A stretch of DNA of 64,000 nt from an uncultured Spirochaetota bacterium (GCA_963745745.1 CAVUYS010000006.1:4503-68502), one strand, 5' to 3'; counted from the first letter of the stretch, positions 19,537 through 33,854 are shown. Program-made: numbers and translations. The notes: generated by a model from the sequence alone, not told the origin.

Positions 19537-19552
<16 letters not shown>
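18593..19552 (-). CDS. sugar ABC transporter permease (RbsC-like)
   Basis: 319-aa multi-TM ORF with …FNAYAIGGNSTVSRLSGVKVKRNQIIYYVIGG…. Confidence 0.85.
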
Positions 19553-21083
<1,531 letters not shown>

Positions 21084-21136
21084 GCCTGTGCCCGCGTGTG
21101 CTCATATGCCCATAACATGAATAATTGCTCAAGAGG

Positions 21137-21165
21137 AGCTTAACAGACCGGCAGCGGGCTGTCAA
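21137..21165 (-). promoter_or_regulatory. sigma70-like promoter TTGACA-17-TAAGCT for the ABC operon
   Basis: Reverse complement of 21160-21165 is TTGACA and of 21137-21142 is TAAGCT, with a 17-nt spacer. Lies between the SDR stop (21173) and the ATPase start (21083). Confidence 0.45.
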
Positions 21166-21172
21166 GTTTTTA

Positions 21173-21925
21173 TCAATCCATGTAGTAGCCGCCGTTGATG
21201 TTGACGGTCTCCCCGTTGATGTAGCCGGCCTGGTCGGAGGCCAGGAAGCACATCAGGTGGGACATGTCCGCTTCCGTGCCCAGGCGCCGCACCGGGATGC
21301 GGGAGGCGATGTCGTCCTTCTTGGCCTCGTCCCAGTAGTGCATCAGGTCGGTCATCACCGCGTGGGGGGCGATGGCGTTGCAGGTGACCCCGTGGGGCCC
21401 CAGCTGCCGGGCCACGGAGCGGGTCAGGCTGATCACCGCCCCCTTGGAGGCCCCGTAGGCGAAAACCGTCGTGTTGTCGCCGTTCTTCCCCGTGATCGAG
21501 GCGACGTTCACGATGCGCCCGTACTTCTGGGCCTTCATGATCGGGGTCACGGCCCGGATGGCGTACAGAACGCCCTTCACGTTGACGTCGATCGTCTTGT
21601 CGATGATCTCGTCGCTGGTCTCCTCGATGCTGCCGGGGATCAGGATGCCGGCGTTGTTGATCAGGATGTCCACCCGGCCGAACTCGGCCTTGGTGCCGAG
21701 GATCAGCTGGTCCACCTGGGCGCGATCGGCCACGTCGCAGAACACCCCCTTGGCCCGCCCGCCGGCCTTCTGGATGCGCCGGACGGTCTCCTCCATTTCC
21801 TTGCGGCTCACGTCGGCGATCACCACCACCGCCCCCTCCGCCGCCATGTCCTCGGCGGTCTGCTTGCCCATGCCCTTGGCGGCGCCCGTGATGATGGCGA
21901 CCTTGTCGACAAAACGCTTTTCCAT
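21173..21925 (-). CDS. short-chain dehydrogenase/reductase (SDR), last gene of BMC locus A
   Basis: GAAGGAG RBS. MEKRFVDKVAIITGAAKGMGKQ, NNAG and YGASKGAV motifs. 250 aa. Confidence 0.85.
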   Translation of the reverse strand: MEKRFVDKVAIITGAAKGMGKQTAEDMAAEGAVVVIADVSRKEMEETVRRIQKAGGRAKGVFCDVADRAQVDQLILGTKAEFGRVDILINNAGILIPGSIEETSDEIIDKTIDVNVKGVLYAIRAVTPIMKAQKYGRIVNVASITGKNGDNTTVFAYGASKGAVISLTRSVARQLGPHGVTCNAIAPHAVMTDLMHYWDEAKKDDIASRIPVRRLGTEADMSHLMCFLASDQAGYINGETVNINGGYYMD

Positions 21926-21945
21926 TACGCGAACTCCTTCAATGC

Positions 21946-22744
21946 TCAATATTTCGAGGTGCTCTTGCTGCCGGTGACGATAGCGATGCCGCCGCTGGTG
22001 CCCAGGCGGGTGGCCCCGGCCTGGATCATGGCCCGGGCGTCCTCGGTGGAGCGGATGCCGCCCGCGGCCTTGACCCCCATTTCCGGCCCCACCGTGCGGC
22101 GCATGAGGGCCACGTCCTGGACGGTGGCCCCGCCGGAGGCGAAGCCGGTGGAGGTCTTCACGAAGTCGGCCCCCGCCTTCTTGGCGATCTGGCAGGCCAG
22201 CACCTTCTCCGCGTCGGTGAGCAGGGCGCACTCGATGATCATCTTCATGACCGTGGTCTGCCGGCAGGCCCTCAACACCGCCCGGATGTCCTCCTCCACG
22301 GTCTTGAGGTCCCCGGATTTCAGGGCGCCCACGTTGATCACCATGTCGATCTCGCTGGCCCCGTTCTCCACGGCGTAGCGGGTCTCCAGCCCCTTGGCGC
22401 GGCTGTCCATGGCCCCCAGGGGGAAGCCCACCACGGCGCAGACCTTCACCCCCGTGCCGCGCAGCTTGCGCGCGCACTGCGTCACCCAGGTGGAGTTCAC
22501 GCACACCGAGTAGAACTTGTACTCGATCGCCTCGGCGCACAGCTTGTCCACCTGGGCCTGGGTGGAGTCAGGCTTCAGCAGGGTGTGGTCGATGTACTTG
22601 GCCAGCTCCGGCGCCGGCAGCGGAGGCCGCTCCCGAGGACTTCGCCTCCGCCGCAGCCCCGGCGCCGCTGCCCGTCGCCTTCAGGCGGGCCAGCACCTCC
22701 TGCGTGATCTTTTCCACCATTTCCCTGGTATCCATCCGCTTCAT
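21946..22744 (-). pseudogene. deoC: deoxyribose-phosphate aldolase (DERA) with N-terminal encapsulation-peptide-like extension; one frameshift in the linker as assembled
   Basis: ATG 22744 (ATGA overlap with the rpiB stop) gives [46 protein letters not shown]. The catalytic domain ([38 protein letters not shown]...DFVKTSTGF...) is in the +1 frame. The shift is at a CC/GG dinucleotide near 22609. Confidence 0.85.
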
Positions 22745-23220
22745 CCTCTTTCCACTGCCATGATCTTGTTGACCCGCGCCCAGTGCCTTCCGCCGGCGAA
22801 AGGGGTTTGCAGCCAGGTCTTGACGATCGCGGCCAGCGCGTCCGCGCTGTGCAGCGGCCCGCCCAGGGTGAGCAGGTTGGCGTTGTTGTGCTCCCGGCTG
22901 TTCACCGCCGTTTTCTGGTCGTAGCACATCGCCGCCCGGATGCCCTTCACCTTGTTGCAGACCATGCAGGAGCCGATGCCCGCCCCGTCGATCATGATCC
23001 CCCGGTCGCAGTCGCCGGAGGCGACCTTGCGGGCCACCTTCAGCGCGAAGTCCGGGTAGTCCACGCTGTCCTTGCTGTGGGTGCCCACGTCCACGACCGT
23101 GTAGCCCAGGGTCTGCAGGTACTTCTCCAGGAATTCCTTGGCCTCGAAGCCGCCGTGGTCCGAGCCCAGGGCCACCCGCCGCACCGGCCCTGCCTCAGGG
23201 GTCGCCGCATCCGCGCTCAC
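22741..23220 (-). CDS. rpiB: RpiB/LacA/LacB family sugar-phosphate isomerase
   Basis: 159-aa ORF with GSDHGGF, GIMIDGAGIGSCMVCNKVKGIRAA, REHNNANLL and GGRHWARV. GTG start overlaps the upstream BMC-P stop. Confidence 0.85.
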   Translation of the reverse strand: MSADAATPEAGPVRRVALGSDHGGFEAKEFLEKYLQTLGYTVVDVGTHSKDSVDYPDFALKVARKVASGDCDRGIMIDGAGIGSCMVCNKVKGIRAAMCYDQKTAVNSREHNNANLLTLGGPLHSADALAAIVKTWLQTPFAGGRHWARVNKIMAVERG

Positions 23221-23495
23221 TGGCCGCCTCCGCTCTGGATGCGGTCCACGATGCCCACCACCACGGTGCGCACCGCGGCCATGGAGTTGCCCAGGATCAT
23301 CCGGCTGGAGTTGCCTTCGTCGATGATCAGCACCGTGTCCCCCTCCCCCGCCTGCACCGTATCCAGGCCCACCATGCTCTTGCCCTTGGGCTTTCCTTCC
23401 GGGTCCACGGGCTGCAGCACCAGCAGCTTGTGACCCTGCAGGTCGCTGGACTTCATCGTGGCCACCACCGTGCCGATCACGCGGGCCAGGGTCAT
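23217..23495 (-). CDS. BMC-P pentamer vertex protein (EutN/CcmL family), paralog P4a
   Basis: MTLARVIGTVVATMK...LLVLQPVD...DTVQAGEGDTVLIIDEGNSSR...VVGIVD, typical EutN/PduN length and motifs. Confidence 0.9.
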   Translation of the reverse strand: MTLARVIGTVVATMKSSDLQGHKLLVLQPVDPEGKPKGKSMVGLDTVQAGEGDTVLIIDEGNSSRMILGNSMAAVRTVVVGIVDRIQSGGGQ

Positions 23496-23755
23496 GCGTC
23501 CACCCGGTCCACGATGGCCATCACGGTGGCATCCGAGGTGTTGAACCAGTCCGTCAGGGCCAGGGCCGCCTCGCGGCCGCCTTCCCAGAGCACCAGGTCC
23601 CCGGGGCCGGCCTGCACGGTGTCACAGGCGATGAGCGCCTCCCCGTAGGCCTGCCCTCCCTCGTCCACCGGCTGCAGCAGCAGGAGCTTCACCCCTTCCA
23701 GGGCCGGGTCCTTGGCCGTGCACATCACCGAGCCGATGATCTTCCCCAGCTTCAT
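23492..23755 (-). CDS. BMC-P pentamer vertex protein (EutN/CcmL family), paralog P3a
   Basis: MKLGKIIGSVMCTAKDP...LLLLQPVD...CDTVQAGPGDLVL...VMAIVDRVD. 4-nt overlap with P4a. Confidence 0.9.
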   Translation of the reverse strand: MKLGKIIGSVMCTAKDPALEGVKLLLLQPVDEGGQAYGEALIACDTVQAGPGDLVLWEGGREAALALTDWFNTSDATVMAIVDRVDA

Positions 23756-23765
23756 GGGCCGCCTC

Positions 23766-25213
23766 TCACACGATCCGGAAATAGTCGATCAGCGCGCAGC
23801 GCCGCTCCCGGCTGAAGGTGCGTGGCCCGGGTCAGCCCTTCGCCCGTCGGGCTGGCGATGGTCCAGCTGGTGAACCCCGCCCCGCCGAAGCCCAGCCCGT
23901 CGTAGGCCGAGCCGTTCTTCACGAACAGCGAGCAGTTCATCACCTTGGCCATCTTCGACAGCTTCTCGATGTTGCGGGAATGCATCACGGCCGTGTGCCG
24001 GAAGCCGTGCTCGCAGGCCACCGCCAGCTCGATGGCCTCGTCCACGTTGGCCAGGCGCACCAGCGGCAGCACCGGCATGAGCTGCTCGGTCCAGACCAGC
24101 GGGTGGTCGCGCCCCACCTCGCACAGCAGCAGGCGCGTGCCGGCGGGCACCTCCACGCCGATGGCCCTGGCGATGACCCCCGCGTCCTTGCCCACGAAGT
24201 CCTTGTTGGCCGCCCCTTCCCGTCCCGGGCCTCCCGCCTCCTTGATCACCAGGCGGGTCACCGCCGCGGTCTGTTCGGCGTTGAGCTCGAAGGCCCCGTG
24301 CTTCTTCATCTCCGCCTTGAGCTCGTCGGCGATCGAGGAGACGGCCAGTACTTCCTTCTCGTCGATGCAGATCACGTTGTTGTCCAGGCTGGCCCCGCTC
24401 ACGATGTCCCGGCCGGCCTTGACCAGATCCGCGGTCTCGTCCACCACCACCGGCGGGTTGCCCGGTCCGGCGGCGATCGACCTTCTTGGCGCTCTTCATC
24501 GCCGCCCGCACCACCGCCGGGCCCCCGGTCACCACCAGCAGGTTGACCAGGGGGCTCTCGAAGAGCTTCTGGGCCGTGTCGATCGTGGGCTCGGCCACCG
24601 TGCACAGCACGTTGGCCGGTCCCCCGGCCCGCTGGATGGCCTCGTTCAGGATGCTCACCGTGCGGGCGCTCACCTTGCGGGCCGCCGGGTGGGCGTTGAA
24701 GACCACCGCGTTTCCCGCCGCCACCATGCCGATGGCGTTGTTGAAGATGGTCTCCGTCGGGTTGGTGCTCGGGGTGATGGAGCCCACCACCCCGTAGGGA
24801 GCCCGCTCCACCAGGGTCAGGCCGTGGTCGTCCGTGAAGCTGACCGGCACCAGGTCCTCCACCCCGGGGGTGGCGGTGATGGCGATGCGGTTCTTGAGCA
24901 CCTTGTCCTCGGCCCGGCCCATGCCGGTCTCCTCGACCGCCAGGCGGGCGATCTCCTCCAGGTGGGCCAGCCCCGTTTCCCGCATGGCGGCGATCATCCG
25001 GCGGCGGGTTTCCAGGGTGCACCCCGCGAGGTCCTCGAACGCCTTGCGGGCGGCGCGCACCGCGGACTCGATGTCCCCGAACACGCCCGCCTGCCCGGCC
25101 AGTGCCCCACCCTGCGCGCTGGCGGTCACCGGCGCAGCAGCTCCTCCGGGAGTCTGCAGCCTGGCCACCACCTGCTCCACCAGGGCCCGGATCGCAGCCT
25201 CGTTTACTTCCAT
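23766..25213 (-). pseudogene. CoA-acylating aldehyde dehydrogenase (PduP/EutE-like) with N-terminal encapsulation peptide; two frameshifts as assembled
   Basis: MEVNEAAIRALVEQVVARLQTPGG... then the ALDH core (…PYGVVGSITPSTNPTETI…, …LDNNVICIDEKEV… with the catalytic Cys, …EQLMPVLP…). Shifts are near 24478 and 23823. The restored C-terminus …TFSRERRCALIDYFRIV ends at TGA 23766-23768. Confidence 0.85.
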
Positions 25214-25794
25214 ACGCCCATCCCCTCATGCGGCAGGTCCAGCACGTGCTCCCGGATGTCCGGGTGGGGATTGGCCAGGAGCACCTCCCGGCACAAGAGG
25301 CCCTTGTCCGAAACCAGGCGCACTCCGGCGGCCAGGCCCGCCTCCACCTCGTGGATCCTGCCCATCAGCTTCACCGTGCTCTTGCCGCCCATGCCGCCGG
25401 CCAGGCGGATCTCCACCACCCGCACCGCGGAGGCCTTGGCCGCCGCGTCCGCCGCCTCGATGCCGGCGGACACCGAGAGGCTTTCGATGATGCCCAGCGC
25501 GTCCCATTCCCCGGCGCGCGCTTCCCCGCGCAGAGCCGGGATCACCTGCGGGTCCAGGTTCTGGATGAAAAGCTCGTCCACCAGCTCGGCGTTGCGCCCG
25601 GTCTTGCCGGCGGCCAGCGAGGCCTCCACCGAGGCCACGTCCCCCGTGATCAGGATCACCAGGCGCCCGGGCTCCACCAGGCGCGTGGTGATCACCGCCA
25701 CCGGCGCGGCCTTGACCATGGCGTCCAGGGCCTGCACCCCCAGCGCGATGCTGGAGTACTCCTGCACCCCGATCACGTCGTACTGCCTGCTCAT
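25204..25794 (-). CDS. BMC-T shell protein (two tandem canonical BMC domains)
   Basis: 196 aa. Two BMC-domain halves (…IGVQEYSSIALGVQALDAMVKAAPV…ITGDVASVEASLAAG… and …ALGIIESLSVSAGIEAADAAAKASAV…GRIHEVEAGLAAG…). Confidence 0.8.
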   Translation of the reverse strand: MSRQYDVIGVQEYSSIALGVQALDAMVKAAPVAVITTRLVEPGRLVILITGDVASVEASLAAGKTGRNAELVDELFIQNLDPQVIPALRGEARAGEWDALGIIESLSVSAGIEAADAAAKASAVRVVEIRLAGGMGGKSTVKLMGRIHEVEAGLAAGVRLVSDKGLLCREVLLANPHPDIREHVLDLPHEGMGVWK

Positions 25795-26078
25795 TTGCGG
25801 AACACCACTTCGCCGTGCTCGTCCACCAGGTCCACGATCCCCGAGATCAACGCGTCCACCGGCTTCTTGTCGCTGAATTGCATCTGCCGCGCCGAAGGCC
25901 CTTGGGTCACCATGACCAGCTCCCCCGCCCCGGCGCCGATGCCGTCCAGGGCCACCAGGTAGTCCCGGCGCCCCCGGCCCCGCTGGTCGCAGAGCTCCAC
26001 CAGCAGGAATTTTGCGCCGGGGATGCCGTCGCTGCGGCGCGTGGCCACGACCGTGCCGGCCACCCTGGCGAAGATCAT
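25791..26078 (-). CDS. BMC-P pentamer vertex protein (EutN/CcmL family), paralog P2a
   Basis: [15 protein letters not shown]...FLLVE...[17 protein letters not shown]...[13 protein letters not shown] overlap with the downstream BMC-T. Confidence 0.9.
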
Positions 26079-26374
26079 GCCTGGTCCTTCTGGTAGACCG
26101 TTCGGCCGTCCAGCTCCACGGTGTCCACGATGGCCACGATGGCCGCGTCGCTGGGCTTGCCGTCGGTGACCGCGGTCAGCCGGGCGCTGGAGCCGGCCAC
26201 GTAGAAGACCACCTCCCCGGGCCCGGCGCCGACCGTGTCCATGGCCACCACGTAGTCCTTCTTGCCGGCCATGGTGGCGGGGTCGAGCTTTTCCAGCAGA
26301 AGGAACTTGATCCCCTCGATCCTGGGCTCCTTGCGCGTGGATACGACCGTCCCGGTCACTCGGGCCAGGAGCAT
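26075..26374 (-). CDS. BMC-P pentamer vertex protein (EutN/CcmL family), paralog P1a
   Basis: [17 protein letters not shown]...FLLLEKLD...[20 protein letters not shown]...IVAIVDTVE. 99 aa. Confidence 0.9.
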
Positions 26375-26375
26375 T

Positions 26376-26689
26376 CTAGGCCTTCTTCTTGGCCGCGGCC
26401 TGCTGGCGTCCCAGGGGCAGGGCCTCGTCCACGTTGCCGTGCGGCCGCGGGATGATGTGCACCGACACGATCTCCCCCACCCGCTCGGCGGCCCGCTGCC
26501 CGCGTCCACCGCCGCCCGCACGGCCGCCACGTCCCCGCGCACGATCGCCGTCACGTAGCCCCCGCCGATCTTCTCGAAGCCGATCAGCTCCACCTTCGCC
26601 GCCTTCACCATCGCGTCCGAGGCTTCCACCATCGCCGCAAACCCGCGGCACTCGATCATCCCCAAGGCGTCCGAATACACGCTCTCCAT
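26376..26689 (-). pseudogene. BMC-H hexamer shell protein (PduA/EutM-like), one frameshift as assembled
   Basis: [75 protein letters not shown], then off-frame. The C-terminus [29 protein letters not shown]... is in another frame. A G is missing relative to the locus-B copy at about 26500. Confidence 0.85.
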
Positions 26690-26701
26690 GTCTCCTTCCT
26701 C

Positions 26702-27347
26702 CTATTCTTTCTGTCCCCCGGCCTCGCGCCCCGACAGGCCCGCCAGCCGGCTCTCCACGATTTCCTTGCTCACCAGCACTTCCGCCTCGTCCCCCGCGAT
26801 GTACACCCGCCCAAAGCTGCCAAACCCCGACACGTCGATGATGTTGATGTGCGAGGTCTTCTCCGCCTCGTTGGCCGCGTAGAAGGCGTACCCCGCCGGC
26901 TCCATCTCCAGCACGTACAGCGTGTCCCCCCGCAGCACCATGTTCCCGTGGCGCACCTTGTTGATCAGCTGCGCGTGGTGGTCGGAGATGTTCTTGATCA
27001 GCTGGCTGGTCAGCACCTGGGGCTTCATGCCGGTCCTCTTCCCTGGCCCCCAGCTCCTTCAGCATCGCCGCCCCCGCCTGCCGCGCGTCGGCCTGGCTGT
27101 CGGAGTGCACCTCCAGCAGCCCGAACAGCCGCTCCACGATCTGGATGCCCGGGGTCACGTTGGTGGCCTTCAGGGCGATGTCGGTGAAGCGGTTGATCTC
27201 GATGCCCGGGGAGATCTCCACCACCATGCAGGCCTGCTGGGCCACCGGGTAGTAGCCCTTGGAGGTGGTGGCCAGAAAGGAGGCCATCTGGAACTGCAGG
27301 CTGTCCAGGAAGATGTAGGTCCTCAGGTCGATCCGGTTCTCCGCCAT
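26702..27347 (-). pseudogene. permuted two-domain BMC-T shell protein (PduB/EutL-like topology), one frameshift as assembled
   Basis: Same protein as the intact 214-aa copy at 32330-32974 (about 96% aa identity by manual count). There is an extra C relative to that copy near 27030. Each half carries …E(I/M)xPxxxxxxxxxxAxKxxxVxxxxxxxxGxxGxLxxxGxxxxV…. Confidence 0.75.
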
Positions 27348-27348
27348 C

Positions 27349-27645
27349 TCACTCCCCCTTGCCGCCCAAAGGCAGCGCCGCGTCCACGTTGGCATGCGGC
27401 CGCGGAATGATGTGCACCGACACCACCTCGCCCACCCGCTCGGCGGCCCGCTGCCCGGCGTCCAGCGCCGCGCGCACCGCCGCCACGTCGCCGCGCACGA
27501 TCGCCGTCACGTAGCCCCCGCCGGTCTTCTCGTAGCGCTTCAGCTCCACCCTGGCCGCCTTGACCATCGCGTCGGAAGCTTCCACCATGGCCGCGAATCC
27601 GCGGCACTCGATCATGCCCAGCGCCTGGCCCAACGCCTCTTCCAT
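27349..27645 (-). CDS. BMC-H hexamer shell protein (PduA/EutM-like), first gene of locus A
   Basis: [73 protein letters not shown]...VHIIPRPH. 98 aa. Confidence 0.9.
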
Positions 27646-27806
27646 ATCCCTGCCCTCCTGCTTCTGGCTGTTAGAAAATTCACACCTCTTCGAGATATCG
27701 TAAGAAAGCTAACACTCCTAAGCCAAAATATCGGCCAAAATTATCATTAATGGCCCAGTATTGCACCAAAAATTTCAGTTGTCAATACATTGTTGTTAAG
27801 ATAGGA

Positions 27807-27812
27807 TATAAT
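27807..27812 (+). promoter_or_regulatory. consensus -10 box TATAAT placed 6 nt before the DeoR start codon (leaderless-type arrangement)
   Basis: TATAAT 27807-27812 and ATG 27819, with no Shine-Dalgarno in between (CAGACG). Lies in the AT-rich divergent region 27646-27818. Confidence 0.4.
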
Positions 27813-27818
27813 CAGACG

Positions 27819-28595
27819 ATGGGGAAACAAGAGCGCATCCAGCAGATCGTGGAGACCCTGCGGTCCCAGGATCTGGGCGTGTCCTCGATCCGCGAGCTGG
27901 CCGGCCGCCTGGCCGTGTCCGAGATGACCATCCGCCGGGACCTGGAGCTGCTGGCCCGCGACAACGTGGTGCGCCTGGTGCACGCCGGGGCGGTGCTGGT
28001 TTCCCCGGAGGCCGCTGCCCCGCGCTACTCGCTGGCGGAGGCCGGCGCGCACATGGCCGAGGAGAAGCGCCGGATCGGCCGAAGGGCCGCCGCGCTGATC
28101 CAGCCCCAGGACATCGTGATCGTGGACTCCGGCTCCACCACCGAAAGCCTGGTCAACGCCATCCCGGACGGCCTGCCCCTGACCCTGATCTGCTTCTCCC
28201 TGAACATCCTGGTGGCGGCGCACCGCAACAAGGAATGCCGGATCGTGTTCGCCGGAGGAGAGCTGCACGAGAACACCCTGATGTTCGAGAGCCCCGAAGG
28301 GGCCCAGCTCATCCGCCGCTCCCGGGCCAACAAGGCCTTCCTTTCGGCCAGCGGCGTGAGCGACCGGTTGGGGGTCACCTGCGCCAACTCCTACGAGGTG
28401 GAAACCAAGAAGGCGGCCATCGCCTCCTCCCTGCAGCGCATCCTGGTGACCGACTCCAGCAAGTTCGGGCGCATCCACCCTTCCCACTTCGCCGAACTGC
28501 AGGACTTCTCCGCCCTGGTCACGGACGCGGGCCTGCCCGCGGAAAGCGCCGAGTTCCTCCGCGCCAACGGCATCCAGATTCTTCTCGCCGAGTGA
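27819..28595 (+). CDS. DeoR family transcriptional regulator, divergent from BMC locus A
   Basis: MGKQERIQQIVETLRSQDLGVSSIRELAGRLAVSEMTIRRDLELL (HTH_DeoR) and a DeoR C-terminal sensor domain (IVIVDSGSTT, LVTDSSKFG). Confidence 0.85.
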   Translation: MGKQERIQQIVETLRSQDLGVSSIRELAGRLAVSEMTIRRDLELLARDNVVRLVHAGAVLVSPEAAAPRYSLAEAGAHMAEEKRRIGRRAAALIQPQDIVIVDSGSTTESLVNAIPDGLPLTLICFSLNILVAAHRNKECRIVFAGGELHENTLMFESPEGAQLIRRSRANKAFLSASGVSDRLGVTCANSYEVETKKAAIASSLQRILVTDSSKFGRIHPSHFAELQDFSALVTDAGLPAESAEFLRANGIQILLAE

Positions 28596-28612
28596 CGCCC
28601 CGGTAAGCTGTT

Positions 28613-29482
28613 TCAAGCGACCTCCAGGCGGTAGGTGCTGGTGAAGGTGCCTCCGGCCTCCAGGCGCAGGATGCCTTCCTTGGCCGACAGCTCGCCGGTG
28701 GCGCCGGGGCTGTCCGGCAGGCCGAACCAGGGCTCGAGGCAAAGGAACGGGCAGCGCCCCGGCTTGGCCCAGACCCCCAGGTAGGGGGCCCCTCCGGTAA
28801 TCACCGAAACGCTGCGGGGGTTCTGGCTGTTGCGGATGGAAACGATCCCGGAGGCCGGGTGCTTGAGGATCAGCACCCCGCGCTCGAACAGGTCCGGGCG
28901 CAGGAAGATCTGCCGGCTGGTGTCGAACACCGGGGCGGTCTGGTCCAGCATCAGGCCGTTGTCGAAAAAGTGCCTTTCCAGATTCTCCTCATCGCCGAAG
29001 TGCAGGTAGTAGTTCTCCAGCTGCCCTCCGGCGAAGGGCACCCGGATGGCGGGGTGCGAGCCGATGGAAAAGAGCATCTCCGCGGAGCCGATGTTGGTCA
29101 CCTCGTACTGCACCGCCAGCCCTGAGTCCTGCACCAGGAAGGTGACGCGCAGCCGGAAATCGAAGGGGTACTGCCGGCGGGTTTCCTCGCCGGAGCTCAG
29201 TTCCAGCGCGACGCTGGAGGCTCCCGCGGCGGCCCGCGTGAACAGGCTGCGGCGGGCGAAGCCGTGCTGCGGCAGGCTGTACTCGGCGCCCCGGTGGGTA
29301 TACTTGTTGTTCTTCAGCCCGCCGACGTTCGGGAACAGGATGGGGGCGGAGCCGCTCCACCAGGTCTGGTCCCCCGGCCAGATGTACTCCGTGCCCGATT
29401 GCCGGTCCCTCAGGCTCTTCAGCTCCGCGCCCATCTCCTCGATGCGGGCCTCGAAGCGCTCCCCGGCGATGACGACGGCCAC
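28613..29482 (-). CDS. aldose 1-epimerase (galactose mutarotase-like) family protein, last gene of BMC locus B
   Basis: GTG 29482 gives MAVVIAGERFEARIEEMGAELKSLRD...PILFPNVGGL...LPQHGFAR...SIGSHPA...PFLCLEPW, typical of the YihR/LacX-like epimerase family. Confidence 0.8.
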   Translation of the reverse strand: MAVVIAGERFEARIEEMGAELKSLRDRQSGTEYIWPGDQTWWSGSAPILFPNVGGLKNNKYTHRGAEYSLPQHGFARRSLFTRAAAGASSVALELSSGEETRRQYPFDFRLRVTFLVQDSGLAVQYEVTNIGSAEMLFSIGSHPAIRVPFAGGQLENYYLHFGDEENLERHFFDNGLMLDQTAPVFDTSRQIFLRPDLFERGVLILKHPASGIVSIRNSQNPRSVSVITGGAPYLGVWAKPGRCPFLCLEPWFGLPDSPGATGELSAKEGILRLEAGGTFTSTYRLEVA

Positions 29483-29499
29483 AGCAGACTCGGTACGGC

Positions 29500-30340
29500 T
29501 CAGTACGCGGACTTGCCCACGGCGCCGGTGACGATGGCCACCCCGGCCACCGCGCCCAGCCGGGTGGCGCCCGCGTTGATCAGGATCATGGACTTCTCGA
29601 AGGAGCGCACCCCGCCGGAGGCCTTCACGCCCATGCCCGAGCCCACGGTCCGGCGCATCAGGGCGATGTCCTCCGGGGTGGCCTCCCCGCCTCCGAAGCC
29701 GGTGCAGGTCTTCACGAAGTCGGCGCCGGCCTTTTTGGCCAGCTCGCAGGCCAGCACCTTCTCCTCCTGGCTGAGCAGGGCGGTCTCGATGATCACCTTC
29801 AGGATCGTGGTGCCGTGGCTGGCCCGCCGCACGGCCCGGATGTCCTCTTCGACATACTTCAAATCGCGCGACTTCAGGGCCCCGATGTTCAGCACCATGT
29901 CCAGCTCCGAGGCGCCGTCCTCCAGGGCGCCGCGCCCTTCGAAGGCCTTGGCGCGGGAGGACATGGCCCCCAGGGGGAAGCCGATCACCGAGCACACCTT
30001 CACGCCGGTTCCGCGCAGCTTGCGGGCCACATAGGCCACCCGGCAGGAGTTGACGCACACGGAGAAGAAGCGGTACTGCAGCGCCTCGGCGCACAGCTTG
30101 TCGAAGGCCTCCAGCGGCGCCTCGGGGCGCAGCATGGTGTGGTCGATGTACTTGGCCAGCTCCGCCGGGGACAGGGCCGCAACCGCGGCGGGCCCCGCTG
30201 CCGGCCTCGCGACGGCCCGCGCCGGCGGAGGCCTGGCCCGCGCCGGCCAGCTTGGCCATGACCTCGCCCACGATGCGCTGCACCAGCTCCTTCTGATCCA
30301 TGTCCCCGATGATCTTCCCGATCAAATCCTTCTGCTCCAT
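29500..30340 (-). pseudogene. deoC: deoxyribose-phosphate aldolase (DERA), second copy, with N-terminal encapsulation-peptide-like extension; one frameshift in the linker as assembled
   Basis: ATG 30340 gives MEQKDLIGKIIGDMDQKELVQRIVGEVMAKLAGAGQASAGAG. The catalytic domain (…[42 protein letters not shown]…DFVKTCTGF…) is in the +1 frame, ending at TGA 29500-29502. The shift is somewhere in 30170-30225. Confidence 0.85.
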
Positions 30341-30344
30341 GAAG

Positions 30345-30848
30345 CTAGATCCCTCCTCGCTCGATCGACATCAGCTTGTTCACGCGCGCCCAGTGCCGCC
30401 CGCCCGCGAAGCGGGTCTCCAGCCAGAGCCGGGCCAGCTCGCAGAGCTGGTCCCCGCTGTGCAGGGGCCCGCCCAGGGCGAGCACGTTGGCGTTGAAGTG
30501 TTCCCGGCTCATCACCACGGTGCGCGGGTCGTGGCAGGCGGCCGCCCGGATGCCCTTCACCTTGTTGCAGGCCATGGCCGAGGCAATGCCGGCCATGTCC
30601 ACCACGATGCCCCGCTCGCAGTCCCCGGAGGCCACCTTGCGGGCCACCTTCACGGCGATGTCGGGGTAGTCCACGCTCTCCTTGCCATGGGTGCCCACGT
30701 CGCTCACCTTGTAGCCGAGGGTCTGCAGGTACAGTTTGAGCACCTCCTTGCCCTCGAAACCGCGGTGGTCGGCGCCCAGGGCCACGTGCTGCACCTGGTC
30801 CGGACCGCTGCCGGCCTGTTCCCCGCCGCCCAAGCTCACCATGCTCAC
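30345..30848 (-). CDS. rpiB: RpiB/LacA/LacB family sugar-phosphate isomerase, divergent second copy
   Basis: 167 aa with GADHRGF, GIVVDMAGIASAMACNKVKGIRAA, REHFNANVL and GGRHWARV. About two-thirds identical to the locus-A copy by eye. Confidence 0.8.
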   Translation of the reverse strand: MSMVSLGGGEQAGSGPDQVQHVALGADHRGFEGKEVLKLYLQTLGYKVSDVGTHGKESVDYPDIAVKVARKVASGDCERGIVVDMAGIASAMACNKVKGIRAAACHDPRTVVMSREHFNANVLALGGPLHSGDQLCELARLWLETRFAGGRHWARVNKLMSIERGGI

Positions 30849-31123
30849 GCGTCCTTTCCCGTTCGGATCTGGTCCACGATGGCGAAGATCGTAGTGCGCA
30901 CGGCCGCCTTGGGGGCGCCCAGGATCTGGCGGCTGGAGTTGCCCTCGTCGATCAGCATCACGGTGTCCCCCTCCCCGGCCTGCACGGTGTCGCAGGCGAT
31001 CACCGTCCGGCCCGCGGGGTTTCCGTACGGGTCCAGCGGCTGCACCAGCAGCAGCTTCCGGCCCCGCAGATCCGGGATCTTCATCGTGGAAACCACCGTG
31101 CCCGTCACCCGCCCCAGGGTCAT
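30845..31123 (-). CDS. BMC-P pentamer vertex protein, paralog P4b
   Basis: [15 protein letters not shown]...LLLVQPLD...CDTVQAGEGDTVMLIDEGNSSR...FAIVD. Counterpart of P4a. Confidence 0.9.
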   Translation of the reverse strand: MTLGRVTGTVVSTMKIPDLRGRKLLLVQPLDPYGNPAGRTVIACDTVQAGEGDTVMLIDEGNSSRQILGAPKAAVRTTIFAIVDQIRTGKDA

Positions 31124-31383
31124 GCGTCCACCCGATCCACGATGCCCATCACCGCCGCATCCGCGGGATTGAAGGAGTCCGGCAGGGTCATGGCCGCCTC
31201 GCGGCCGCCCTCCCACAGCACCAGGTCGCCCGGGCCGGCCTGCACCGCGTCGCAGGCGATCAGGGGGTCCCCGTAAGCCCGCCCCCCCTCGTCCACCGGC
31301 TGCAGGAGCAGCAGCCTGGCCCCTTCCAATCCGGGGTCCTTGACGGTGCACATCACCGAGCCGACGATCCTGCCCAGCTTCAT
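31120..31383 (-). CDS. BMC-P pentamer vertex protein, paralog P3b
   Basis: MKLGRIVGSVMCTVKDP...LLLLQPVD...CDAVQAGPGDLVL...VMGIVDRVD. 69 of 87 residues identical to P3a by manual count. Confidence 0.9.
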   Translation of the reverse strand: MKLGRIVGSVMCTVKDPGLEGARLLLLQPVDEGGRAYGDPLIACDAVQAGPGDLVLWEGGREAAMTLPDSFNPADAAVMGIVDRVDA

Positions 31384-31390
31384 GCCGGTC

Positions 31391-31678
31391 TCACTTGCGG
31401 AACACCACTTCGCCGTCCTGGTCCACCAGGTCCACAATGCCGCAGACCACCGCGTCCACCGACCGGCGGTCGGTCAGCTCGGTGTTGCGCGCGGAAGGTC
31501 CCTGGGCCACCATCACCAGCTCCCCCTCCCCCGCGCCCACCGTGTCCACCGCGACCAGGTATTCCCCCCGGCCCTCCAGGCGCGGGGTGCAGGCCTCCAC
31601 GAGCAGGAACCTGGCCCCGGGGACCGTGTCGGCCCGGCGGGTCAGGACCACGGTGCCGGCGACCCTGGCGAAGGTCAC
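31391..31678 (-). CDS. BMC-P pentamer vertex protein, paralog P2b
   Basis: GTG start (GTGA overlap). [14 protein letters not shown]...FLLVE...GAGEGELVMVAQGPSAR...VCGIVDLVD. Counterpart of P2a. Confidence 0.85.
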   Translation of the reverse strand: MTFARVAGTVVLTRRADTVPGARFLLVEACTPRLEGRGEYLVAVDTVGAGEGELVMVAQGPSARNTELTDRRSVDAVVCGIVDLVDQDGEVVFRK

Positions 31679-31974
31679 GCCTGGTCCTTGCGGTAGACCG
31701 CCCGCCCGCCGACGTCCACGTCGTCCACGATCCCGATGACCGCGGCATCCGTGGGCCTGCCGTCGGTGGCCTCCGTCAGGCGGGCGGCGCTGCCGGACAC
31801 GCACAGCACCACCTCGTCCACCCCGGCGTCCACCGCGTCCATGGCCACCAGGTAGTCCTTCTTGCCGGCCATGCTCGTGGGGTCCAGCTTCTCCACCACC
31901 AGAAAGCGCACTCCCTCGGTGCGCGGCTCCTTGTGAGTGGAAACGACAGTGCCGATGACCCGGGCTAGAAACAT
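31675..31974 (-). CDS. BMC-P pentamer vertex protein, paralog P1b
   Basis: MFLARVIGTVVSTHKEP...FLVVEKLD...VLCVSGSAAR...VIGIVDDVD. 67 of 99 residues identical to P1a by manual count. Confidence 0.9.
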   Translation of the reverse strand: MFLARVIGTVVSTHKEPRTEGVRFLVVEKLDPTSMAGKKDYLVAMDAVDAGVDEVVLCVSGSAARLTEATDGRPTDAAVIGIVDDVDVGGRAVYRKDQA

Positions 31975-31990
31975 GGGGTCCGGGGCGCGC

Positions 31991-32308
31991 CTATTTCTTC
32001 TTGGCCGCGGCCGCGGCCTGCTGGCGTCCCAGGGGCAGGGCCTCGTCCACGTTGCCGTGCGGCCGCGGGATGATGTGCACCGACACCACCTCCCCCACCC
32101 GCTCGGCGGCCCGCTGCCCGGCGTCCAGCGCCGCCCGCACCGCCGCCACGTCCCCGCGCACGATCGCCGTCACGTAGCCCCCACCGGTCTTCTCGAAGCC
32201 GGTCAGCTCCACCTTCGCCGCCTTCACCATCGCGTCCGAGGCTTCCACCATCGCCGCAAACCCGCGGCACTCGATCATCCCCAAGGCGTCCGAATACACG
32301 CTCTCCAT
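31991..32308 (-). CDS. BMC-H hexamer shell protein (PduA/EutM-like)
   Basis: Intact 105-aa [87 protein letters not shown]... Confidence 0.9.
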   Translation of the reverse strand: MESVYSDALGMIECRGFAAMVEASDAMVKAAKVELTGFEKTGGGYVTAIVRGDVAAVRAALDAGQRAAERVGEVVSVHIIPRPHGNVDEALPLGRQQAAAAAKKK

Positions 32309-32329
32309 GCCCTTCCTCCTGCCTTCCTC

Positions 32330-32974
32330 TTATTCTTTCTGTCCGCCGGCCTCGCGCCCCGATAGGCCCGCCAGCCGGCTCTCCACGATTTCCTTGCTCA
32401 CCAGCACTTCCGCCTCGTCCCCCGCGATGTACACCCGCCCGAAGCTGCCGAAGCCCGACACGTTGATGATGTTGATGTGCGAGGCCTTCTCCGCCTCGTT
32501 GGCCGCGTAAAAGGCATATCCTGCCGGCTGCATCTCCAGCACGTACAGCGTGTCCCCCCGCAACACCATGTTCCCGTAGCGCACCTTGTTGATCAGCTGG
32601 GCGTGGTGGTCGGAGATGTTCTTGATCAGCTGGCTGGTCAGCACCTTGGGCTTCATGCGGTCCTCTTCCCTGGCCCCCAGCTCCTTCAGAATCGCCGCCC
32701 CCGCCTGCCGCGCGTCGGCCTGATTGTCGGAGTGCACCTCCAGCAGCCCGAACAGCCGCTCCACCACCTGGATGCCCGGGGTCACGTTGGTGGCCTTCAG
32801 GGCGATGTCCGTGAAGCGGTTGATCTCGATGCCCGGGGAGATCTCCACCACCATGCAGGCCTGCTGGGCCACCGGGTAGTAGCCCTTGGAGGTGGTGGCC
32901 AGAAAGGAGGCCATCTGGAACTGCAGGCTGTCCAGGAAGATGTAGGTCCTCAGGTCGATCCGGTTCTCCGCCAT
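32330..32974 (-). CDS. permuted two-domain BMC-T shell protein (PduB/EutL-like topology)
   Basis: AGGAGG RBS and an intact 214-aa ORF. Two roughly 100-aa halves each end in a …A(L/E)KxxxVxxxxxxxxGxxGxxxxxGxxxxV… core. Family call is by pattern and locus context, not by search. Confidence 0.75.
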   Translation of the reverse strand: MAENRIDLRTYIFLDSLQFQMASFLATTSKGYYPVAQQACMVVEISPGIEINRFTDIALKATNVTPGIQVVERLFGLLEVHSDNQADARQAGAAILKELGAREEDRMKPKVLTSQLIKNISDHHAQLINKVRYGNMVLRGDTLYVLEMQPAGYAFYAANEAEKASHINIINVSGFGSFGRVYIAGDEAEVLVSKEIVESRLAGLSGREAGGQKE

Positions 32975-32983
32975 GGCTTCCTC

Positions 32984-33763
32984 CTAGTGCATCTCCCGCC
33001 CGCCGGTGATGTTGAACGCCTGGCCGGTGCAGTAGTCCCCGCTCACGGTCAGGAAGTGGACGAAGTCCACGACGTCCTCGATGCGGGTCAGCCGCCCCAG
33101 GGGGATCTTGGCGGTGAACTTCTTCACCACCTCCTTCTCGGGCAGCTTCAGGTTCTCGGTGTAGGCCTTGCTCACCTCGCCCCACACCCCGGTGGCCTCG
33201 GTGATGCCGGGGCAGACGCAGTTGACCTTGACGTTGGCCTCGGCCAGCTCGAAGGCCAGCGCGTGGGTCAGGCTGATGATCGCGCCCTTGGCCGCCGAAT
33301 AGTGGGCCATCAGCGCGGAGCCGGTCTTCCCGGATTTTGACGAGAAGTTGATGATCCGTCCATCCTTCAGGGCGCGCATGCCGGGCGCCACGGCCTGCGC
33401 GCAGTACAGGGCGCCGTGCACATTGACCCGCATGATGCGGTCCATCAGCTCCGGGGTGATCTGCTCGAAGGGTCGCTGGTCCACCAGCCCGGCGTTGTTC
33501 ACCAGGCAGAATACCGGACCCAGGACCCGGGCGATTTCCGCGAAGCAGGCCAGCACCGCCTCCCGGTCCGTGATGTCCACCACGTAGCCGACCGCGGTGC
33601 GGCCCTGCGCGGCCAGGCGCTCCGCCTCCTGTTTCACTGCCGGATTGATGTCCAGCAGCGCCACCTTCGCGCCGTCCGCGGCGTAGCGCTCGGCGATCGC
33701 CAGGCCGATGCTGCGGGCCGCCCCGGTAATCACGCAGACCCTGTTAGCCAATGTTAGAGCCAT
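32984..33763 (-). CDS. short-chain dehydrogenase/reductase (SDR), first gene of BMC locus B
   Basis: MALTLANRVCVITGAARSIGLAIA, NNAG, YSAAKGAI. 259 aa. The stop lies 9 nt before the BMC-T start. Confidence 0.85.
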   Translation of the reverse strand: MALTLANRVCVITGAARSIGLAIAERYAADGAKVALLDINPAVKQEAERLAAQGRTAVGYVVDITDREAVLACFAEIARVLGPVFCLVNNAGLVDQRPFEQITPELMDRIMRVNVHGALYCAQAVAPGMRALKDGRIINFSSKSGKTGSALMAHYSAAKGAIISLTHALAFELAEANVKVNCVCPGITEATGVWGEVSKAYTENLKLPEKEVVKKFTAKIPLGRLTRIEDVVDFVHFLTVSGDYCTGQAFNITGGREMH

Positions 33764-33779
33764 GACCGGAAGCCTAAAG

Positions 33780-33811
33780 AAACCGCTGGTTTTTGTCAAC
33801 CGAAAACGGTT
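33780..33811. promoter_or_regulatory. two adjacent AACC/GGTT palindromes (AAACC-GCT-GGTTT and AACCG-AAAA-CGGTT) flanking a TTGTCA box: candidate DeoR operator
   Basis: Read directly at 33780-33792 and 33798-33811, in the 91-bp divergent region between SDR (33763, minus) and DeoR (33855, plus). Confidence 0.35.
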
Positions 33812-33854
33812 TTTTCTGGACATTTTTGGCTTTTTTCGGTACTCTGCCTCGTAC

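Follow-up and report, generated by a model that had tools for sequence, protein, structure and literature searches.

How can a microcompartment operon without an aldehyde dehydrogenase work, when a complete operon of the same kind lies directly beside it? In the established SPU scheme, deoxyribose-phosphate aldolase (DERA) cleaves a deoxypentose phosphate in the shell to give glyceraldehyde-3-phosphate and acetaldehyde, and aldehyde dehydrogenase (AldDH) converts the acetaldehyde to acetyl-CoA, so trapping it. Within a 64-kb stretch of DNA from an uncultured Spirochaetia lineage (hereafter, the window), positions 21173-33763 hold two SPU2-type microcompartment operons, called here locus A and locus B, both on the minus strand and arranged head-to-tail, each beside a divergent DeoR-family regulator of its own.

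Two SPU2-type operons in tandem

Locus A encodes two BMC-H proteins, a CcmP-like BMC-Tdp, a BMC-Ts, four BMC-P, a CoA-acylating AldDH with an encapsulation peptide (EP), a DERA also tagged with an EP, and an RpiB-like protein. Locus B encodes BMC-H, BMC-Tdp and four BMC-P together with a DERA, likewise EP-tagged, and an RpiB-like protein, flanked by SDR and aldose-1-epimerase genes; it lacks BMC-Ts and AldDH, its gene order is otherwise that of A, and P2 adjoins P3 at a distance of 7 nt. The gene calls were checked by Pfam, NCBIfam and PDB searches and all were confirmed, so that the genes listed in a first-pass annotation of this DNA were recovered in the places and order it gave (Table 1), including the gap of 17 bp between the stops of A's DeoR (28595) and the epimerase (28613). 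As also claimed there, only one locus contains AldDH and each has a private DeoR; tblastn detected no second AldDH in the 64-kb window, where that of locus A is the sole one. The flanks of A hold SDRa, an ABC sugar transporter and GFO/IDH, and those of B hold SDRb, the epimerase and Zn-ADH.

Table 1 Features of the two loci, with their regulators and adjoining genes, in window coordinates.
Feature	Position	Strand	Evidence and remarks
SDRa oxidoreductase, A, last gene, without terminal extension	21173..21925	-	Pfam adh_short E 1e-57
DERA, A, N-terminal encapsulation helix + linker	21946..22735	-	NCBIfam deoC equivalog 287 bits; +1 at ~22620
RpiB-like, A	22741..23220	-	Pfam LacAB_rpiB E 2e-53; NCBIfam rpiB 151 bits
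BMC-P4, A	23217..23495	-	Pfam EutN_CcmL E 2e-25
BMC-P3, A	23492..23755	-	Pfam EutN_CcmL E 3e-24
AldDH, A	23766..25213	-	frame broken twice here (+1 at ~24478, +1 at ~23821)
BMC-Ts, A only, 196 aa, two tandem BMC domains, PduT-like	25204..25794	-	Pfam BMC, two stretches, E 4e-34
BMC-P2, A	25791..26078	-	Pfam EutN_CcmL E 2e-26
BMC-P1, A	26075..26374	-	Pfam EutN_CcmL E 3e-26
BMC-H2, A, 104 aa	26376..26689	-	Pfam BMC E 1.2e-30 (corrected sequence); frame broken here (-1, ~26501)
BMC-Tdp, A, CcmP-like, 214 aa	26702..27347	-	frame broken here (+1, ~27029-27031); 96% nt identity to B copy
BMC-H1, A, first in operon, 98 aa	27349..27645	-	Pfam BMC E 1.5e-30; exact protein on 22 contigs
DeoR-family regulator of A, divergent from A, convergent with B	27819..28595	+	Pfam DeoRC + HTH_DeoR
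Aldose 1-epimerase-like, B, last gene	28613..29476	-	Pfam Aldose_epim E 2e-24
DERA, B, N-terminal encapsulation helix (…DQKELVQRIVGEVMAKLAG) + linker	29500..30340	-	NCBIfam deoC equivalog 257 bits; +1 at ~30220
RpiB-like, B	30345..30848	-	Pfam LacAB_rpiB E 4e-47
BMC-P4, B	30845..31123	-	Pfam EutN_CcmL E 9e-26
BMC-P3, B	31120..31383	-	Pfam EutN_CcmL E 4e-25
Putative deletion scar, 7-nt spacer, P2 stop to P3 start	31384..31390	-	junction alignments
BMC-P2, B	31391..31678	-	Pfam EutN_CcmL E 6e-24
BMC-P1, B	31675..31974	-	Pfam EutN_CcmL E 1.5e-26
BMC-H, B	31991..32308	-	Pfam BMC E 6e-30
BMC-Tdp, B, CcmP-like, 214 aa	32330..32974	-	PDB CcmP 4HT5 E 3.5e-70; NCBIfam CcmP 279 bits
SDRb oxidoreductase, B, first gene, without terminal extension	32984..33763	-	Pfam adh_short E 3e-53
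DeoR-family regulator of B, divergent from B	33855..34625	+	Pfam DeoRC + HTH_DeoR
Zn-dependent alcohol/polyol dehydrogenase, after B's DeoR	34644-35694		ADH_N + ADH_zinc_N, two frames

In Pfam, the BMC-H genes matched BMC (PF00936) at about E 1e-30 and all eight BMC-P genes matched EutN_CcmL (PF03319) at about E 1e-24 to 1e-26; Aldedh (E 1e-37), DeoC (E 2e-20) and LacAB_rpiB (E 2e-53 for A, 4e-47 for B) were also found. The expected shell matches to PF00936 or PF03319 were thus obtained for BMC-H, BMC-Ts and BMC-P, but the 214-aa protein first annotated as a permuted BMC-T stayed under the PF00936 cut-off (20.7 vs 24.5 bits). Despite this miss, its PDB and NCBIfam matches, with PF27545 on record, identify it as a CcmP-like BMC-Tdp. 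For BMC-Ts, eut_PduT was the top NCBIfam match, under its cut-off. Residues 4-481 of the frame-corrected AldDH matched NCBIfam PRK15398 with 660 bits (cut-off 403). DERA-B aligned with the solved DERA 8QPS over 220 residues (phmmer, E 5.5e-78) and retains the active-site motifs. In the RpiB-like protein of A, Asp stands in place of the catalytic Cys (motif IDGAG, read by eye), and in that of B an Asp falls opposite the catalytic Cys of C. thermocellum RpiB when the two are aligned (CtRpiB; PDB 3HE8, 3PH3).

The assignment of both runs to the SPU class was upheld and could be narrowed to SPU2 with Supplementary Data 2 of Sutter 2021 (PMC8217296). As in SPU2 (PMC8217296; PMC11585597), the only enzymes are AldDH, DERA (PF01791) and an RpiB-like protein (PF02502), the shell genes are one or two BMC-H, four BMC-P, a CcmP-like BMC-Tdp and BMC-Ts, N-terminal EPs are present on AldDH and DERA, Asp occupies the catalytic Cys position of the RpiB-like protein, and the host falls among the SPU2 hosts (Spirochaetes, KSB3, Vecturithrix). 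As an SPU2 locus, A is canonical and has the gene order of the related loci surveyed. Genomes with SPU2 have been described as having one such locus each, without satellites and without other BMC types beside it (Sutter 2021, PMC8217296), and loci without AldDH were removed from the SPU set, all SPU loci being said to contain AldDH (Dwyer 2024, PMC11585597). Unlike the catalogued SPU2 loci, the two loci here stand in tandem, and one lacks AldDH and BMC-Ts though it is otherwise intact and under selection. To the first-pass annotation, no described tandem of a full and an AldDH-less locus, each with a private regulator, was known; such a tandem is indeed absent from these two key SPU papers, and among 79 related genome loci the AldDH-less copy occurred only in this lineage, that is, in the window and in a second MAG of the same genus-level clade (L003).

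Integrity of the pair

Colinearity with L003 extends across both loci, for 13.8 kb at 91% nt identity. The Epim-DeoR-BMC-H junction, which connects B to A, was present in at least 10 of the 22 independent metagenome contigs that carry A's BMC-H1 (all 10 among the matches listed). P2 is directly followed by P3 in L085, L086 and L003, as in the window, and in the remaining surveyed loci that cover this junction P2 and P3 are without exception separated by AldDH.

The reading frames of the two loci are disrupted by six single-base indels, five in locus A and one in locus B; those in DERA-A and DERA-B sit in the linkers. All six are window-specific, and none of them recurs in independent contigs from this population, of which as many as five were compared per indel: the indel in A's BMC-Tdp is missing from L085, L088, L090, L091 and L003 (an unbroken 214 aa in L090 and L091), that in BMC-H2 from L088, L090, L091 and L003, and both AldDH indels from L082, L083, L084 and L003, while DERA-A is unbroken in L082 (254 aa) and DERA-B in L085, L087 and L089 (279 aa). 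Indels were also found in the non-BMC genes Zn-ADH (35314) and GFO/IDH (17190), and L003 has indels of its own at other places. Because the indels are window-specific and unrelated genes are also affected, the frameshifts are sequencing errors and not gene decay. Between the window and L003, dN/dS was 0.06-0.24 for the B genes at dS 0.2-0.45, which shows locus B to be under purifying selection, and 0.0-0.5 for the A genes, also on either side of each window frameshift (0.1-0.3 around those of AldDH).

These data bear on two further explanations. One of the loci might be a decaying remnant, either A through its indels or B through the loss of AldDH and BMC-Ts, and the pair would then record gene loss under way and serve no joint function; another Spirochaete MAG (L023) indeed contains a second SPU2 locus in a degenerate state. 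We regard this as very improbable, since the indels are absent from the independent contigs and similar ones affect unrelated genes, dN/dS is far below 1 on either side of each of them and in all B genes, and the layout of B has been stable over lineages at dS ~0.3; the 5:1 split between A and B is not significant with six events (rough binomial estimate ~0.16). The tandem or the AldDH-less junction might also be produced by a collapsed or duplicated repeat, as a segment of ~1 kb that is 96% identical between the loci could mislead an assembler. Duplication during assembly had been named in the first-pass annotation as a ground for rejecting the layout. However, identical P2-P3 and Epim-DeoR-BMC-H junctions recur in assemblies made independently, with different assemblers, from different samples, so that the tandem is genuine, and the genes on either side of the P2/P3 junction, being paralogs of only 42-48% identity, are not repeats. 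An artefact of this kind is scarcely credible.

Origin of locus B

Enzymes and BMC-P proteins share just 64-79% identity between the two loci (enzymes 65-70%). DERA-A groups with the single-locus Spirochaete type (77% vs 64% identity), and DERA-B with the SDR/epimerase-flanked type, another SPU2 sub-lineage (73% vs 65%). The earlier description of B as a partial duplicate therefore had to be given up. An ortholog of B, on contig L004 (RpiB 92%, DERA 91%, P1 86% identity), yet contains BMC-Ts and AldDH. Contig L095 carries an A locus, DeoR and the Epim/DERA-B/RpiB-B end and overlaps L004 with 97.7% identity over 1852 nt; from this 1.85-kb overlap of contigs from different samples, the sister lineage appears to have both loci complete. 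Because the sister lineage keeps both, and the P2-P3 junction is identical in the window and L003 with no indel at that point, the state of B is best explained by one clean, secondary, ancestral deletion of BMC-Ts and AldDH between P2 and P3. The AldDH of the sister lineage's B locus is ~88% identical to A's AldDH at the nt level, which suggests that the loss was tolerated because A made this AldDH redundant.

The Tdp-H2 segment is 96% identical at the nt level between A and B over ~1 kb, and the Tdp and H copies of A and B cluster by genome, not by locus. BMC-Tdp and BMC-H of B thus evolve in concert with BMC-Tdp and BMC-H2 of A, homogenized by gene conversion.

Regulation and encapsulation signals

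The DeoR of A probably starts at 27819 (27750 in the models of the gene callers), and sigma-70-like promoters lie back-to-back at 27757-27807. The two DeoR regulators are ~45% identical to each other and no obvious common operator was seen between the A and B promoter regions, which argues for independent rather than coordinated induction. A simple consensus scan, a method blind to Rho-dependent termination, found no terminator-like structure in the interval from the final gene of B to A's convergent deoR.

The N-terminal helices of AldDH, DERA-A and DERA-B are conserved and have the highest helical hydrophobic moments (1.5-1.75), and no encapsulation-type extensions were found on the SDRs, RpiBs or epimerase. 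SPU DERAs with such N-terminal extensions, as well as a DERA-RPI complex, have been reported (Dwyer 2024, PMC11585597).

How locus B may obtain its AldDH

Since B lacks AldDH, we propose that it is a second, separately induced cargo-and-shell cassette whose products would co-assemble with those of A. The proposal draws on the same kind of N-terminal amphipathic helix on both DERAs and AldDH, on the near-identity of BMC-H and BMC-Tdp maintained in the two loci through gene conversion, and on the lack of a detected terminator between B and A's deoR, owing to which read-through from B could antagonize A's repressor and transcribe A. Judged from the sequence, B most likely borrows the AldDH of A; the full reading, in which paralogous tandem SPU2 operons co-assemble after B lost its AldDH and share the AldDH of A, we hold to be somewhat more probable than its negation.

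Two other ways of working would leave A's AldDH out of account. B may form an autonomous AldDH-less compartment that encloses only the DERA/RpiB-like complex; the aldehyde, acetaldehyde or other, would then exit the shell and be handled by cytosolic enzymes such as the neighboring SDR or the Zn-dependent dehydrogenase, or the direction or substrate of DERA-B would be such that no volatile aldehyde arises. B does retain all of a minimal shell (BMC-H, BMC-T and four BMC-P) with its own regulator and is selected in its own right, its flanking genes differ from those of A, suggesting a different substrate, and its DeoR protein and promoter region are also unlike A's. Yet AldDH is present in every curated SPU locus and in the sister lineage's B ortholog, aldehyde trapping is the accepted rationale of the organelle, neither SDR nor epimerase has an encapsulation-type extension, and DERA-B has a canonical deoC signature with its active-site motifs preserved, so that we consider an autonomous B rather unlikely. 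Supply of AldDH, and perhaps also of PduL or ADH, from a distal satellite locus instead of A is doubtful still further: satellites carry AldDH in ACI and enzyme modules in HO, SPU3 and SPU6, and the genome stretch examined was 64 kb, but this stretch holds no second AldDH, SPU2 is described as free of satellite loci, a complete AldDH with a matching EP lies 3.4 kb downstream of B's end, and the ~88% identity of the sister AldDH to A's points to redundancy with A.

Comparison with other multi-locus systems

In the Acidobacterial ACI type, AldDH is always on a satellite, and in HO type I, BMC-P and aldolase are on a satellite (Sutter 2021, PMC8217296). The proposed borrowing of AldDH by B resembles these main-plus-satellite systems, as a needed component is encoded outside the locus holding the rest and the two loci must therefore cooperate. 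Unlike ACI and HO satellites, which are distal and partial, B has the full make-up of a main-type locus (BMC-H, BMC-P, signature enzyme and its own regulator) and immediately adjoins a complete locus of the same subtype. Having both BMC-H and BMC-P, it is a main locus by the catalogue definition, and the term satellite, used for it at first, does not fit. The carboxysome ccmK3/ccmK4 satellites are likewise separately regulated extra shell genes, thought to tune an existing organelle, but they encode shell proteins only, whereas B adds a signature enzyme and a full vertex set.

Salmonella enterica also has two BMC operons per genome, Pdu and Eut, each with its regulator and shell genes. Their regulation keeps mixed compartments from forming (work cited in Sutter 2021, PMC8217296), which counts against co-assembly of A and B. 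However, Pdu and Eut, kept unmixed by regulation, are each enzymatically complete and B is not, and the facet genes common to A and B are homogenized, pointing to mixing rather than exclusion. If A and B do co-assemble, the pair would act as one consolidated locus, in which a single shared AldDH may serve two substrate-specific feeder and regulatory arms.

Gene content of the two loci

Three-frame translation of the minus strand (21100-34300), in a window with a G+C content of ~67%, recovered exactly the gene series listed in the first-pass annotation, and searches of Pfam, NCBIfam and the PDB bore out the family calls of its ORFs. In both loci, PF00936 (BMC-H/T) and PF03319 (BMC-P) shell genes, well over the Pfam cut-offs, are clustered with enzyme genes. 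The BMC-H genes matched at E ~1e-30 and the eight BMC-P genes, four per locus and arranged as two adjacent pairs, at 1e-24 to 1e-26, and the 196-aa BMC-Ts of locus A contains two BMC domains. Pfam matches in the region also included Aldedh, LacAB_rpiB, DeoC, adh_short, Aldose_epim and DeoR. The 214-aa protein listed as a permuted BMC-T fell below the Pfam BMC cut-off; its best PDB matches (4HT5 and 5LSR, E ~4e-70) and its sole NCBIfam match, CcmP, identify it as a CcmP-type BMC-Tdp.

The frame-corrected aldehyde dehydrogenase (AldDH) of locus A is EutE-like (PRK15398, full length, 660 bits in NCBIfam), and the deoxyribose-phosphate aldolases (DERA) of both loci matched the deoC equivalog, with 287 bits for A and 257 bits for B. 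In both DERAs the deoC match begins only after an additional helix and linker, 46-52 residues in all, an N-terminal extension of the kind that sets SPU DERAs apart from housekeeping ones. AldDH, DERA-A and DERA-B share one pattern of N-terminal amphipathic helix, and inspection of the termini revealed no targeting extension on either SDR or on the epimerase. DERA-B aligned over 220 residues with the solved DERA 8QPS (phmmer E 5.5e-78) and keeps the Schiff-base motifs. An RpiB-type gene (PF02502) adjoins DERA in both loci; RpiB-B has an Asp aligned to the catalytic Cys of CtRpiB, and RpiB-A, read by eye, has the identical IDGAG motif with Asp at the Cys position. Asp in place of Cys66 is a hallmark of all SPU RPIs (Dwyer 2024, PMC11585597).

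Coordinates of features in the window and in two related contigs
Feature	Position	Strand	Remark
Locus A, complete SPU2-type operon	21173-27645	-	
deoR-A	27819-28595	+	probable start
Locus B, AldDH-less SPU2-type operon	28613-33763	-	
DeoR-B gene	33855-34625	+	
Indel in BMC-Tdp (A)	27029		single base
Indel in BMC-H2 (A)	26501		single base
Indels in AldDH (A)	24478, 23821		single base
Indel in DERA-A	22620		single base
Indel in DERA-B	30220		single base
Split in Zn-dependent dehydrogenase	35314		
Indel in GFO/IDH/MocA oxidoreductase	17190		window-private
Palindrome, SDRb/DeoR-B promoter region	33798-33811		perfect
Sugar gene cluster downstream of A	14600-21083		annotation from L082
Iron-sulfur flavoprotein	36635-39778	-	~1047 aa
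A-locus BMC-Ts of the sister lineage	L095:7458-7937		in-frame deletion
Lone BMC-Tdp and nearby 488-aa protein	L064:10004-12678		

Frame-breaking indels

Six single-base indels break two shell genes, the AldDH gene and both DERA genes in the window, and with five of them in locus A, this locus could be taken for pseudogenised. When independent contigs from the same population (93-97% nucleotide identity) and L003, a second MAG with the colinear pair, were aligned to the window, each of the six proved private to it. The genes are intact in other contigs: BMC-Tdp at 214 aa in L090 and L091, DERA-B at 279 aa in L085, L087 and L089, and DERA-A at 254 aa in L082. Unrelated genes of the window are likewise split by window-private single-base indels, namely a Zn-dependent dehydrogenase, with ADH_N and ADH_zinc_N in different frames, and a GFO/IDH/MocA oxidoreductase. 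L003 and L082 have indels of their own, different from those of the window; both DERA linkers, a G+C-rich low-complexity hotspot, are broken in L003 too. On either side of each indel, dN/dS was 0.1-0.4 (Nei-Gojobori). Pseudogenisation of locus A was ruled out by the indel-free independent contigs, the unrelated genes affected and the low flanking dN/dS; the marks of a decaying locus are absent, the lesions not being common to relatives and dN/dS being 0.0-0.5, not near 1. We take the indels to be errors in the assembly consensus. Across the assembly, frame-breaking errors seem to occur at ~1 per 2-3 kb. Because the frameshifts of the window are sequencing errors, automated annotation would miscall AldDH, both DERAs and two shell genes as pseudogenes.

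Probable assignment to SPU2

A survey with the BMC-Tdp protein against one genome per GTDB species gave 79 loci, drawn from the best 80 BMC-Tdp relatives only. Their hosts are mostly Spirochaetota MAGs, with some Moduliflexus/Vecturithrix (KSB3) and Lentimicrobiaceae, and the gene order was constant: DeoR(-), then BMC-H, BMC-Tdp, BMC-H, P1, P2, (BMC-Ts), AldDH, P3, P4, RpiB and DERA. Locus A has this consensus order and matches the small enzyme set, four BMC-P, CcmP-like Tdp and BMC-Ts of SPU2, a subtype hosted by Spirochaetes, Bacteroidetes and KSB3, among others (Sutter 2021 Supplementary Data 2, PMC8217296). The published BMC-P tree labels one survey relative, L077 (Spirochaeta LUC14_002_19_P3), as SPU2. 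BMC-Ts is present in locus A and not in locus B; it is not strictly defining for SPU2, because several related surveyed loci are also without it.

Locus B follows the order of A but is without the initial BMC-H and without BMC-Ts and AldDH; its flanks are an SDR and an aldose-1-epimerase gene. P2 abuts P3, with 7 nt from the P2 stop to the P3 start, and no PF00171 gene was found within the span of the locus; the CoA-acylating AldDH (PF00171) with an encapsulation peptide (EP) belongs to A only. The curation of Dwyer 2024 (PMC11585597) dropped AldDH-less loci and says that every SPU locus has AldDH, so that locus B lies outside the curated SPU definition, although it is otherwise SPU-like in every respect. 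The idea that B is a satellite was not upheld: it has BMC-H and four BMC-P and lies 1 kb from A with only a DeoR gene between, and for these reasons it is not a satellite sensu Sutter 2021 (PMC8217296). In that catalogue of >280 SPU loci in seven subtypes, SPU2 has neither satellite loci nor co-occurring BMC types.

In full-text literature searches, neither a tandem SPU pair nor a Spirochaete SPU compartment was found described. The observation of the first-pass annotation is confirmed, and its interpretation is partly supported. In our survey, genomes that otherwise had two SPU2-like loci had them far apart, as in a Vecturithrix with AldDH in each (L030 and L039). The tandem pair of the window stays within the SPU2 framework.

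Recurrence, selection and concerted evolution

The layout is not confined to the window. L003, a different MAG ('uncultured Spirochaetota'), is colinear with window positions 35695-21946 at 91% nucleotide identity, and its P2-P3 junction matches that of the window, free of indels. The exact BMC-H1 protein of locus A was found on 22 contigs, one of them labelled Spirochaetia family DRHE01, and the succession Epim-DeoR-BMC-H was seen in at least 10 of them; two contigs (L085 and L086) reach into B, where P2 is directly followed by P3. Because these junctions recur in independent contigs, the layout belongs to a natural lineage rather than to a single assembly.

Between the window and L003, the B genes gave dS of 0.2-0.45, on a scale where synonymous distances near 0.4-0.7 approach saturation, and dN/dS of 0.06-0.24. 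Low dN/dS at such dS indicates that locus B, with no AldDH of its own, has long been maintained in working order. Across the BMC-Tdp/BMC-H2 segment, A and B are 96% identical, and the copies cluster by genome, not by locus, a pattern of concerted evolution by gene conversion.

The divergence between the window and L003 is a mosaic, with identities of 76-95% (mostly 84-92%) over locus B and the left flank and 92-99% (mostly 95-99%) over locus A, and dS of ~0.3 for locus B versus ~0.05 for locus A. Locus A may thus have passed between lineages recently, by homologous exchange or in a sweep.

Origin of locus B

Locus B had been proposed to be a partial duplicate of A. A recent duplication is contradicted by the 64-79% protein identity between the A and B copies of BMC-P, RpiB and DERA, and by DERA-B, which groups elsewhere. 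For the A genes, the nearest relatives belong to the single-locus Spirochaete type (L005-L013; DERA 77% vs 64%), and DERA-B is closest to a type with the same SDR and epimerase flanks (L029, L030, L040, L048, L050 and L073; 73% vs 65%), all six of which have AldDH between P2 and P3. The B ortholog L004 (RpiB 92%, DERA 91%, P1 86%, P3 91%) yet has BMC-Ts and AldDH between P2 and P3. L004 overlaps L095, a contig with a complete A locus along with RpiB-B, DERA-B, Epim and DeoR, with 97.7% identity over 1852 gap-free nt. In the sister lineage, both tandem SPU2 loci thus seem to be complete. These comparisons point to a single clean deletion of BMC-Ts and AldDH from B, common to the window and L003 lineages. 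The junction alignments gave no clear signature of a repeat-mediated deletion at the borders; all copies conserve the P2 3' end, and a short GCATGA motif occurs repeatedly.

The BMC-Ts/AldDH module of L004 shares ~88% identity with the A-locus module in each of the three lineages, and the AldDHs of A and L004 adjoin within the single-locus Spirochaete clade of a neighbour-joining tree, which, like all our trees, has no support values. We considered a move of the module from B to A, at first inferred from the A BMC-Ts being 86% identical to that of L004 and 72% to the A copy of L095. It was ruled out because the A loci of the window and L095 are 85-95% identical at the nucleotide level through the module and because of the AldDH placement; the L095 BMC-Ts score is depressed by an in-frame 37-aa deletion. 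The order of events suggested by the identities and trees is an older copy of the A module into B, followed by the deletion from B in the ancestor of the window and L003.

The deletion in the A-locus BMC-Ts of the sister lineage, of ~37 residues, removes most of the first BMC domain, and BMC-Ts may be dispensable in this clade. A Dive96 Spirochaete MAG (JAJSAL010000008.1) has two SPU2-like loci ~95 kb apart, of which L031 is complete and L023 is degenerate (one BMC-P, AldDH and a 110-aa DERA fragment), in contrast to the well-preserved AldDH-less locus B. L064, tried as a second AldDH-less case, was not comparable, being a lone BMC-Tdp with unrelated neighbours in a 36% GC Spirochaetota MAG; neither BMC-H nor BMC-P turned up within 10 kb of it. 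A 488-aa protein near this BMC-Tdp has an N-terminus, MEQKQVVDIIVRQVIDKLKD, that looks EP-like.

Promoters, regulators and flanking genes

Co-regulation of the two loci is disfavoured by the identity of only ~45% between DeoR-A and DeoR-B and by the two promoter regions, in which no shared operator was evident. The palindrome AACCGAAAACGGTT in the divergent SDRb/DeoR-B region has no counterpart in the promoter region of A and is a candidate operator. A -35/-10-like pair ends ~7 nt ahead of the SDRb ATG, and SDRb may be nearly leaderless. The last gene of B is convergent with deoR-A, 17 bp apart, and no intrinsic terminator was detected between them, folds being no better than those of shuffles. 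Gene callers start DeoR-A at 27750 (281 aa). A strong sigma-70-like promoter of the BMC operon (TTGACA-17-AATACT, extended TG) and a divergent promoter lie within 27750-27819, and the true start is probably at 27819 (258 aa), as called on some contigs.

Sugar genes, among them those of an ABC transporter and a GFO/IDH oxidoreductase, come after locus A, and the flanks of locus B hold SDRb, the epimerase and the Zn-dependent dehydrogenase; the differing flanks suggest that A and B are fed by different substrates. Downstream of A and on its strand lie genes for an ABC sugar ATPase, permease, periplasmic binding protein and GFO/IDH/MocA oxidoreductase; beyond these are genes for a cupin, a DeoR regulator (the third), a further SDR and an FGGY sugar kinase. 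The whole set is plausibly a feeder pathway for the substrate of A. On the other side of the pair, the iron-sulfur flavoprotein (Fer2_4, Fer4_20, Pyr_redox_2, Fer4/Nqo3-like), which adjoins a DUF456 gene, has no evident relation to the BMC loci.

Discussion

In the SPU scheme, acetaldehyde is converted to acetyl-CoA by an EP-tagged AldDH, and in PTAC-less subtypes acetyl-CoA is thought to exit via the BMC-Tdp pore (Dwyer 2024, PMC11585597). Locus A fits this scheme fully. Locus B, judged by its genes, could form a shell and target DERA-B into it, and it encodes nothing to consume the aldehyde. The most economical reading is that the products of B co-assemble with those of A and would share the AldDH of A. 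It fits with the like N-terminal helices of AldDH, DERA-A and DERA-B, with facet proteins that appear to be kept interchangeable by gene conversion, and with the position of the only AldDH in the 64-kb window, 3.4 kb downstream of B. Read-through from B could in addition counter the deoR-A repressor and transcribe A, a speculation that the convergent deoR-A and the lack of a detected terminator allow. A bolder version, which we consider rather unlikely, makes the two operons a modular plug-in system in which B, under its own induction, supplies shell and cargo for a second sugar substrate and its products form obligate hybrid compartments with the AldDH of A, the convergent geometry hard-wiring the coupling through antisense silencing of deoR-A and read-through. 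If true, it would be the first natural case in which two complete-looking BMC loci obligately cooperate, instead of enforced exclusion, and in which gene conversion maintains interchangeable facet proteins.

BMC loci are usually seen as self-contained modules. In locus B, the shell and the signature enzyme look complete, yet the enzyme that justifies compartmentalisation has been lost. In the best-studied two-locus genome, that of Salmonella with Pdu and Eut, regulation prevents mixing (cited in Sutter 2021, PMC8217296), whereas here an AldDH-less locus is conserved across diverged lineages beside a complete paralog with homogenised facet genes. If the two loci cooperate, natural BMCs could be built from two regulons with a common core enzyme, engineered cargo-swap cassettes would have a natural precedent, and catalogues that drop AldDH-less loci as incomplete would lose real biology. 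The pair also illustrates how BMC loci can evolve by exchange of paralogs, by clean deletion of a module and by concerted evolution. A metabolosome locus that selection maintains without AldDH, and that appears tied by gene conversion to a complete paralog, would be unexpected to specialists and could be tested by heterologous expression.
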